64,000 nucleotides of DNA from Octopus vulgaris (Eukaryota): contig OX597815.1 of NCBI GenBank assembly GCA_951406725.2, forward strand, positions 136,152,001-136,216,000, in the 5' to 3' direction. This document shows, one piece after another, positions 14,139-53,168 of the stretch. The notes under the pieces were generated by a model. The model had not been told where the DNA came from. It made no database searches and saw only the letters and a list, made by a program, of their open reading frames with translations. Made by a program: the position numbers and the translations under genes. Position 1 is the first letter of the stretch. Each line of letters begins with the position of its first letter.

Positions 14139-14344
14139 GTATATCTAAACAATTAATCGATCGTTTGCTGGTTAAATAATCAATCGGCCACTAAATCACT
14201 GAAAAGGTCGCCAACAGCGACGAAAAAACTTTGACTAGCAAACAACCGATTGCTTGTTTACTCAGCAAATTAAAAAAATTTATTAGTTGCTAAAATATTT
14301 AACCAATTGGATATCAATAAAGAAGTGGAGTTGAAACTGTACGT

Positions 14345-15509: not shown

Positions 15510-15724
15510 AAGGTTTCAAATTTTTGCACAAAGCCAGCAGTTTTGCGGAAAGGGTTAAGTTGGTTACATCAATCCCATTTCTCAACTGGTCCTTATTTTA
15601 TAGATATCGAAAGAAAGAAAAGGAATGTTGACCTCGGCTGAATTTGAACTGAAAACGTGTAGACGGATGAAACACTACTAAGCATAGTGCCCGGCGTGCT
15701 AACGATTCAGCCAACTCGTCGCCT
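15510..15724 (-). mobile_element. tRNA-derived SINE (family of 14477)
   Basis: Reverse complement reads GGCGACGAGTTGGCTGAATCGTTAGCACGCCGGG...GTTCAAATTCAGCCGAGGTCAAC. Confidence 0.85.
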
Positions 15725-15954
15725 TTTTTGTTGCATATCATAATGCCGTTACTTTTTGTGAGGCTAGCTTGCTTTTATGAGTCGGATTAGTGATTTTGTG
15801 GTTTCTCTAAGTTTTTGTTACTTTTACTGCAGTAAAAAATGATTATCACTGCAAACGAATTCAAAGCATATTTACAAATGCCGTTTAATATTACTACCAA
15901 AACCAAATTCATCACAAAAATTATCTGAGGAGTTAAAGTTTAAGTTTTAATAAT

Positions 15955-21010: not shown

Positions 21011-21048
<38 letters not shown>

Positions 21049-21049
<1 letters not shown>

Positions 21050-21220
21050 CGGGAAGATTTATGAAAATAGACAAAAGACGAAGGCAGGTGGAAAACAAAC
21101 AAACAATTGTATTAGTATGGCGCTCAGGAAATATAAATAAAACAAGTCTTTAACGTTTCGAGCCTACGCTCTTCAACAGAAAGATACACAGAGAGAAAAA
21201 AAACACAGAAAGAAGGAGAT
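21049..21220 (-). mobile_element. Short PLE-LTR-like module between (TA)n tracts, with variant hammerhead motif (21146-21185)
   Basis: Reverse complement TCTTT-CTGTTGA-A-GAGC-GTAG-GCTC-GAAAC-GTT-AAAGA; homolog at 43770-43955. Confidence 0.75.
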
Positions 21221-37300: not shown

Positions 37301-37907
37301 ATTGTCATCTGTAGCAATGACATCACTCATAACACTCACTCATATCATTCAAAATATTTGTCCCACTTGCTGAAGGTGCTGTAATGATTATATTTTCACC
37401 TATATCTTGATAAAAGTTTCGTTGTACTTGTCTGACTAGTTATTTAAACTGGCCGGTGTGTTGAATCTTAAGGATTACAGCGTGGAAGGCTCATTAGCTA
37501 TTCAAAACCACAAAAAACCTGTTAAATCCACTCAAATATTCATTAGTTGGTGTTAAATAATTCGTCACTGGTCACTACCACAGTTTCACTGCAGTGAGTT
37601 CGACGAAAACTTTGACACCGTGTCGAACTGTGATTTAGCAAGATTTCCCTTTCCTGGGATCCTTTAATTTCAGAATCGTTTTGTAACGTTAAAATTGCGT
37701 AGTATTTGTATTTAAATGAGACGGCTCTGGGCGATTAATAAGACTATTTGCAATGCTTTGTTCATATTTGCTAAATGTAAAAATGAATAAAATTTCTATA
37801 ACAAAGTGATGCATTACTCGGCAGTTTCAGTTTTGAGTTATTTATTTATTTATTGGTTTTCTTACTTGTTATCGATGTCAAAGAATGCATTTCGATAAAG
37901 TGAAATA

Positions 37908-38116
37908 TTGCTTTCAAATTTTAGCACAAGACCACTAATTTCGATGAAAGAGGGGGAAGTCGATTACGTCAACCCCAGTGCTTAAGTGTTACTTAATTTA
38001 TCGATCCCAAAAGGGAATGAAAGGCAAAGTCGAACTCGGTGAAATATTAACATAAAATGTGAAGATAGACGATACTTTTCTCGATGTGCTAACGATTCTG
38101 CCAGCTCACCACCTTT
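37908..38116 (-). mobile_element. tRNA-derived SINE (family of 14477)
   Basis: Reverse complement GGTGGTGAGCTGGCAGAATCGTTAGCACATCG...GACTTTGCCTTTCAT. Confidence 0.8.
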
Positions 38117-38285
38117 ATTTAGTGAAATATTAATTGATATTTTCTCCAAATCCCGATGCTAATTCTCCCTCGTACTTATTGATACTTCTTTAAAAAATAT
38201 ATTAGTTTTCTCTCCCCGCTATATTAATTTTTACCAAATACAAATACTGTTCTGTCCGGCGCTACCGAGATTTAGTATTTCATTA

Positions 38286-38497
38286 AGGCGGCAGAGTTGT
38301 TAGTACATCGGGCAAAATTCTTTGCAGCATTTCGTCCGACTTCACGTTCTGAGTTCGAATTCCGCCAAAGTCGACAGTGCCTTTCCCTATTTTGAGGTCG
38401 ATAAAATAAATACCAGCTGAACAGTAGGGACGATGTAACCAACTTTGCCATTTCCACACCAAATTGCTGGCTCTGTACCAAAATTTGAAACCAATAA
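38286..38497 (+). mobile_element. tRNA-derived SINE (family of 14477)
   Basis: GGCGGCAGAGTTGTTAGTACATCGGG...GAGTTCGAATTCCGCC (good B-box). Confidence 0.85.
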
Positions 38498-38699
38498 TTA
38501 CGTTAGTAGTGTAAAGTACATGACAGGTGATGGTGTTTAATTAAGTTATGCAGGAGTTTCAATAGTACTCTTTCAATGTCTATTGATCATGTAAAGTGTT
38601 ATGTGAATTATGTTATTGCATTGTGTAACATATGTGTAGAGTATATGTTGTGTAAATAACTGTACTGTTTGCGTTTTTATCTTGATTCAAAATGCTTTC

Positions 38700-43748: not shown

Positions 43749-43769
43749 TATATATATACATACATATAT

Positions 43770-43955
43770 AGGGAGATTTTACGAAAAACACAAAAGACGA
43801 AGACAGGCGATGTACAAAACAAGCAGATGTATTAGTATAACGCTCAGGAATAGAAAAAGTCTTTTACGTTTCGAGCCTACGCTCTTCTACAGAAAGGGAC
43901 ACAGAAAAAAAACAAGGAGAGAAAAATATTTGTGTAGTGGCTAACGATTTATCAT
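43770..43955 (-). mobile_element. Second copy of the variant-hammerhead module (motif at 43861-43896)
   Basis: Reverse complement CTTT-CTGTAGA-A-GAGC-GTAG-GCTC-GAAAC-GTA-AAAG; colinear with 21049-21220; abuts (TA)n. Confidence 0.78.
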
Positions 43956-52447: not shown

Positions 52448-52476
52448 AGGTATTTATATATAGCTATTTGTACATA

Positions 52477-52945
<469 letters not shown>

Positions 52946-53168
52946 AGAATAACGTGGACTGCTGGCAATTTTTTCCCTCCTCCTCCTGCCTCTTCTTTTG
53001 GACTTTCCGGTCTCTTGTTTCCAAAGAAGAGCTTGATCGAAACGTTAAACAACCACTCTTTCTTTCCTTCTCTGAGCGTCTTATTAATACTCTGCATATA
53101 CCACGTCCTCGCGTAATTGTCTTTTTTTTTTCTGTTGTCACGTTCTCTCCGTTTCTTAAATTATGTAT

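Follow-up and report, generated by a model that had tools for sequence, protein, structure and literature searches.

Is a hammerhead core with U in place of the near-invariant A6 a working ribozyme, a signal of another kind, or a relic? The question is raised by two minus-strand motifs in the window, i.e., the whole 64,000-nt stretch of Octopus vulgaris DNA analyzed here, in which a sequence-only reading had seen a constrained variant core rather than decay, acting perhaps as a dimer through an ACGU palindrome or perhaps in a non-cleaving role. The features on which the argument draws are given below. Position numbers were inferred from the hammerhead consensus in the excerpted text of PMC4209133 (the papers cited throughout are represented by excerpts), and L105 is the full-length element used as the reference for terminal-repeat identity.

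21040..21219, minus strand: solo pseudo-LTR stub, 5'-truncated, belonging to the youngest subfamily and bounded on each side by a TA run; 97% identity to the two terminal repeats of L105 across 178-180 nt
21148..21183, minus strand: minimal type I hammerhead-like motif, copy 1 (U6, U7, U17)
21172..21179, minus strand: core strand C3-A9 of copy 1 plus unpaired base 9.1 (U6 at 21176, N7 at 21175, extra A at 21172)
21160..21171, minus strand: stem II of copy 1, 4 bp with a GUAG loop; predicted pair probability of 1.0 in a short fold
21152..21159, minus strand: G12-A13-A14-A15.1, the C-G center of the palindrome, U16.1, and H17 of copy 1
21121..21128, minus strand: conserved downstream block of the CYGAGCG type, kept in the A6 sister families too
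43760..43955, minus strand: solo pseudo-LTR stub of an older subfamily; 74% identity over ~215 nt to the L105 repeats
43861..43896, minus strand: minimal hammerhead-like motif, copy 2 (U6 at 43889, A7, A17)

Both motifs have the parts that had been described for them, namely, stem I CUUU/AAAG, stem II GAGC-GUAG-GCUC, and GAAAC-GU(U/A), and on the minus strand both cores read CUGU(U/A)GAA, with C3 at 21179 in copy 1 and at 43892 in copy 2. N7 and H17 are indeed the sole differences within the motif (34 of 36 positions are identical), and the flanks are more diverged, as had been noted, with identities of 14/20 upstream and 72/100 downstream. Each motif sits in a repeat of ~200 nt, the two copies of which are 79% alike; both stubs are solo, lie 22.7 kb apart, and terminate in TA runs. 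The predicted cut in copy 1 would fall between 21152 and 21151 on the minus strand. The loop of helix III, which a canonical type I hammerhead possesses, is absent, and an Rfam scan of the window gave 178 matches, the best 150 of which are microsatellite driven and include no hammerhead. No tRNA genes were found in the window. A non-LTR retrozyme (tandem small hammerhead repeats with no coding frame) was considered and rejected, as the window copies are solo and the family has autonomous members. A close pair of motifs was seen at one locus (L014).

The element from which the window copies derive, as pseudo-LTR stubs, is a Penelope-like element (PLE) that is young and very abundant and has RT and GIY-YIG domains. 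The dispersed copies recognized by the sequence-only reading are thus real, but their host, a Penelope-like retrotransposon, had been overlooked. A search of the window with the PLE protein gave no match; in wider stretches around motif loci, motif pairs 4.2 to 4.5 kb apart bracket an RT frame. Of 16,552 candidates in a protein search, 103 RT matches were scored; their identity is ~97% and many of their scores are tied, which indicates that the host family is young. Relatives bearing no clade names were found at 44 to 62% identity. U6 motifs are present in all 14 long-frame copies fetched, two of them in 10 of the 14, and in every one they lie in the pseudo-LTR on the sense strand, as do PLE minimal hammerheads. 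In the element the motif stands in both terminal repeats and has the same sense as the RT/GIY-YIG frame, the start codon of which lies 763 nt downstream. Pfam recognized RVT_1 (E = 1.1e-7) and GIY-YIG (E = 0.0054, below the Pfam cut-off, with the motif also read directly) in the element frame. RT and, at the C terminus, GIY-YIG therefore occupy one frame between direct terminal repeats in partial tandem, which is the arrangement of EN+ PLEs. The RT-EN linker of L105 also holds a zinc finger, CX4CX2C, ahead of GIY-YIG. An extra zinc-finger motif in this linker is a feature of the Neptune and Nematis clades (excerpt of 10.1101/2021.04.23.441226), and the predicted protein fits their description. 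In a comparison directed at circles and template jumps, the 5' and 3' repeats within nine elements differ by a mean of 1.2 substitutions, versus 2.7 between elements. At L118:3237 (plus strand), the 5' end of a young element adjoins an older-subfamily pseudo-LTR, an arrangement that suggests insertion into a pre-existing copy.

The genome searched has 227 contigs and a length of 2.8 Gb. When any base was allowed at positions 6 and 7, the motif had 18,333 exact matches and a reversed control had none, so the window motifs are not the product of chance. U is the family state at position 6, in agreement with the proposal that U6 is conserved: a hand count of the first 100 matches listed, from 19,333 obtained with the whole core open, gave U 94, C 3, A 2, and G 1, and a family check found U6 in 68 of 70 copies anchored by their flanks. 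A6 occurs in 226 of the 18,333 exact matches; 30 of these were fetched and are scattered over all subfamily flank types, which is the pattern expected of sporadic mutants. The older-type A6 copies with a GUAG loop (2 of the 70 flank-anchored copies) may be sporadic mutants rather than an ancestral A6 subfamily. No variant of at least 5% was seen at position 6 in four of four runs (organisms A to D), in which N7 is variable, and in all four runs word depth is highest over the motif.

Two families that keep A6, both with the same extra A, occur in the genome: one with a 3-nt loop II (5,762 matches, with A6 in 97 of the first 100 listed) and one with a GGCUG stem (2,937 matches, with A6 in 98 of the first 100 listed). 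The 3-nt-loop family has downstream blocks in common with the U6 family, and its stem I is closed by G-C, versus C-G in the U6 family. The GGCUG stem had been a candidate for a second U6 family, and the U6 copies turned out to be sporadic mutants of the A6 family. A decayed piece like the 3-nt-loop A6 family, AAGAAGAGC...CGAAACGTT followed by a pyrimidine tract, lies at 53010-53070 (plus strand) of the window.

The class to which the motif belongs is the minimal hammerhead of Penelope elements. In the excerpted account of Cervera and De la Pena 2014 (PMC4209133), such hammerheads lie in pseudo-LTRs, have no helix III loop, carry a base between positions 9 and 10.1, show low activity as dimers, and follow the consensus CUGANGAH. 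The octopus motif likewise has a short helix I, a helix II with G10.1-C11.1, an unpaired base after A9, a palindrome at 15.2-16.2, and an NUH site, and its copies are mostly solo and derived from truncated elements. The extra A after A9 and the missing stem III loop, both listed earlier as unusual, are standard in that class and common to the A6 families here, and the ACGU-type palindrome at 15.2-16.2 had already been described (PMC4209133). U6 is therefore the one departure from the class: the whole family has U at position 6, whereas the minimal hammerhead consensus reads CUGANGA, and the core variant reported in the excerpt of PMC4209133 is U3-A8, not U6. Stem II is 4 bp, compared with the longer helices usual there. 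The small Penelope-like variants of Lunse, Weinberg, and Breaker (cited in PMC6765202, excerpt) are similar in their reduced stem III, and dimer cleavage was proposed for them.

There is a precedent for a natural core that is substituted at position 6 and otherwise intact, the hammerhead found in phage Bcep176 (Perreault et al. 2011, PMC3088659; Naghdi et al. 2020, PMC7151607; both as excerpts), which is slow in Mg2+ and better in Mn2+. That case is C6 in a single phage ribozyme, whereas here it is U6 in a family of >18,000 copies. Within the papers covered, a search for a hammerhead A6U found the natural A6C and no A6U; one published "A6U" match concerns twister ribozymes. A metagenome scan gave eight hits; two of them, both single copies, combine an NUH site with a stem I of their own, and the other six look like chance. 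The two are U6 minimal hammerhead motifs with different stems (L353:288-340, minus strand; L355:60-115, plus strand), and the helix III palindrome of L355 is CAUG.

Judged from its sequence, the U6 motif is a real variant of the Penelope pseudo-LTR minimal hammerhead, one that lacks the defining A6 in a thriving lineage. Cleavage by the hammerheads of Penelope-like elements is weak in vitro and proved dispensable for insertion in the one element that has been reconstituted, and here a highly successful lineage has kept all of the hammerhead core except A6. If the U6 motif cuts, the accepted core is wider than present search descriptors permit; if it does not, some second task other than catalysis must fall to the motif. 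For controls, one can turn to the A6 copies that occur naturally in these subfamilies and to the A6 families of this genome.

Conservation was assessed in copies picked by a downstream 19-mer anchor (20,661 matches) and not by the motif. The first 90 were taken, and 70 span the motif; 20 were dropped, 18 being truncated inside or below the motif and 2 aligned too short. All 70 have the extra A, which is therefore conserved family-wide, as proposed. After removal of CpG-type and gapped columns, 2 of 30 motif columns (N7 and H17) and 28 of 72 flank columns are variable (minor base of at least 10%); the contrast has a Fisher P value of 8e-4, or 0.03 at a 15% threshold, with columns that are not independent. 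None of the 28 motif columns that are neither free nor CpG type changed at the subfamily level. Conservation is thus higher in the motif than in its flanks, with freedom at N7 and H17 alone, as the two window copies had implied, and the motif stayed constrained after the loss of A6. All four bases occur at N7, and H17 is G in 1 of the 70 copies. On sequence grounds, variation at N7 and H17 only is the pattern that a hammerhead permits.

This contrast disfavors the least probable explanation, a dead relic on a successful element whose apparent conservation is due to chance or sampling. In its favor, U6 is confined to one lineage and the two other families keep A6; against it, 0 of 28 motif columns versus 28 of 72 flank columns changed in copies chosen by their flanks.

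The same data say less about U6 itself. N7 changed repeatedly where position 6 stayed U. A tree of the flanks, weakly supported, has the form of a ladder; from rung to rung, N7 passes through approximately U, C, G, A, C, U, and H17 flips between A and U. The copies used for the tree and for subfamily clustering were partly selected by the motif and served for order only. Between the youngest and oldest clusters, 28 to 33% of flank columns differ. As 39% of flank columns changed across the anchored copies, one unchanged site is unremarkable, and a single site cannot show that U6 is favored. Stem II shows no covariation within the family, so constraint at the sequence level (a promoter or a protein site) also fits. 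Blocks in the flanks are likewise conserved: YGAGCG (21121-21128) and TAATA (21108-21116), both on the minus strand, are kept between the U6 family and the A6 3-nt-loop families (L239-L268). The TAATA block resembles a splice branch point, but older subfamilies have no nearby AG.

Predicted folds set the U6 and A6 forms apart. In natural U6 40-mers the predicted pairs are U4-G16.2, G5-C15.2, and U6-A15.1, plus U7-A14, and the probability of U6-A15.1 ranges from 0.43 to 0.99 over 14 different sequences of this kind; for 7 natural A6 40-mers it is 0.00. In these models, pairing of U6 with A15.1 would zip the core shut in the monomer and hide the ACGU palindrome, and this closing is predicted to be strongest in the youngest, U7 subfamily. 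The self-duplex of the palindrome is predicted at only -3.5 to -4.1 kcal/mol, and in a 165-nt context stems I and II are not predicted to be dominant in either window copy. A switch in which the YGAGCG block pairs with the 3' arm of stem II found no support, its probability being at most 0.02 in both window copies; in four A6 copies this probability is 0.05 to 0.77.

The ends of insertions were examined for a signature of cleavage in 73 RT-bearing insertions, 72 of them mappable. Of these, 38 reach the 5' repeat: 34 continue through the motif into the sequence upstream of it, and 4 stop between +18 and +167. The other 34 stop further inside the element, and no 5' end among the 72 coincides with the predicted cut (+28). 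All 3' ends observed lie ~100 nt beyond the cut site, which implies that the insertion templates were uncut or re-joined there. Where a short stub abuts a TA run, the junction lies at +27/+28 in ~18 of 50 hand-read loci (73 reverse-strand hits) and, in a control window, at an ATA site in ~20 of 49 (92 hits), a rough comparison, since the cut-site and control anchors cover different subfamily sets; an upstream window gave 50 hits. Because the control ATA site has a comparable share, the peak at +27/+28 can be attributed to microhomology. Sought in these three ways, a cleavage signature in insertion ends was not found, cut-site junctions being no commoner than those of the control. None of the 34 read-through insertions ends at element positions -367 to +17, the 385 nt just upstream of the 5' motif, and many end in a low-complexity region beyond that stretch; the empty stretch may be a mapping or microhomology effect.

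These ends agree with those of the Anolis Poseidon element PAc (Frangieh et al. 2024, PMC11167929, excerpt), for which uncut RNA is the main template and no RNA ends were seen at the cut site. That element also has its hammerhead in the pseudo-LTR and inserts into AT-rich DNA, and its hammerhead needs the protein of the element in order to cut and is dispensable for insertion in vitro. Its start codon lies inside the motif, compared with ~760 nt downstream in the octopus element. Its activity has been measured, and the excerpt mentions no change at position 6.

The explanation we favor, with a probability of about 0.5, is that the motif is a strongly attenuated ribozyme that cuts rarely and with help from the element's protein or a second copy. 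Transposition would run mostly on uncut or re-joined RNA, so that a slow, gated ribozyme could be tolerated; an occasional cut, for release from read-through transcripts or for circle formation, would keep the rest of the core selected; and the protein or partner copy would help the zipped monomer core to fold for cutting. Several observations support this explanation. First, the natural A6C hammerhead is slow but active (PMC3088659, PMC7151607). Second, the Anolis hammerhead depends on protein and is unneeded for insertion in vitro (PMC11167929). Third, variation is limited to N7 and H17, and core zipping is predicted in the natural U6 copies and in none of the natural A6 copies folded. It is weakened by the long insertions, which do not start at the cut site, by the stub junctions, which the control matches, by the lack of stem II covariation, and by the conservation of flank blocks. 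In addition, a saturation study of one hammerhead found low activity for CUGA-turn mutants and no rescue except by a C-G swap (PMC9901934, excerpt).

The strongest competitor, to which we give somewhat less credence, is a motif that does not cleave and serves as a folded RNA signal (protein binding or RNA pairing) or as promoter DNA of the pseudo-LTR, with U6 providing a stable rod-like hairpin. Insertion ends that bear no cleavage signature are consistent with such a signal, as is the predicted closing of the core by U6, most marked in the youngest U7 subfamily. The Anolis element inserts without need of cleavage (PMC11167929), and Naiad elements are reported to spread without detected hammerheads (excerpt of 10.1101/2021.04.23.441226). 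Against it, only catalytically free positions vary, H17 avoids G, and a rod would prefer U7 and allow G17.

A more elaborate proposal is a protein-gated hammerhead, in which the A6U core helix would keep the ribozyme locked and the RT/endonuclease of the element would unlock it, so that the ACGU helix III could form between two pseudo-LTR copies. Cleavage or circle formation would thereby be timed to the transposition cycle, and L353 and L355 would be independent uses of the switch. We consider this unlikely.

A fully competent variant core, in which U6 would be cheap in its setting and the dimer would roughly equal A6 minimal hammerheads in cleavage, is much more doubtful still. The retention of U6 across subfamilies while N7 changed several times would suit it, as would the two of eight metagenome hits that combine U6 with their own stem I and NUH site, but these are single copies that may be sporadic mutants. 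Changes at position 6 are strongly deleterious in Mg2+ in the excerpts of PMC3088659, PMC7151607, and PMC9901934, and the predicted zipping of the core also argues against full competence.

The window holds other sequences besides the two stubs. Positions 776-1244 and 52475-52948 belong to an abundant repeat that matches 164 of the 366 fetched loci, and positions 15512-15729 and 37903-38499 belong to another that matches 50 of the 366. At 14199-14225 (plus strand) there is a hammerhead-like string with a 5-bp stem II, A at position 8, no NUH, and no match in the 366 loci, which is probably the result of chance or decay. More hammerhead-like strings with a canonical core and unrelated stems lie near fetched loci, at L040:minus 254 and L060:minus 2652.
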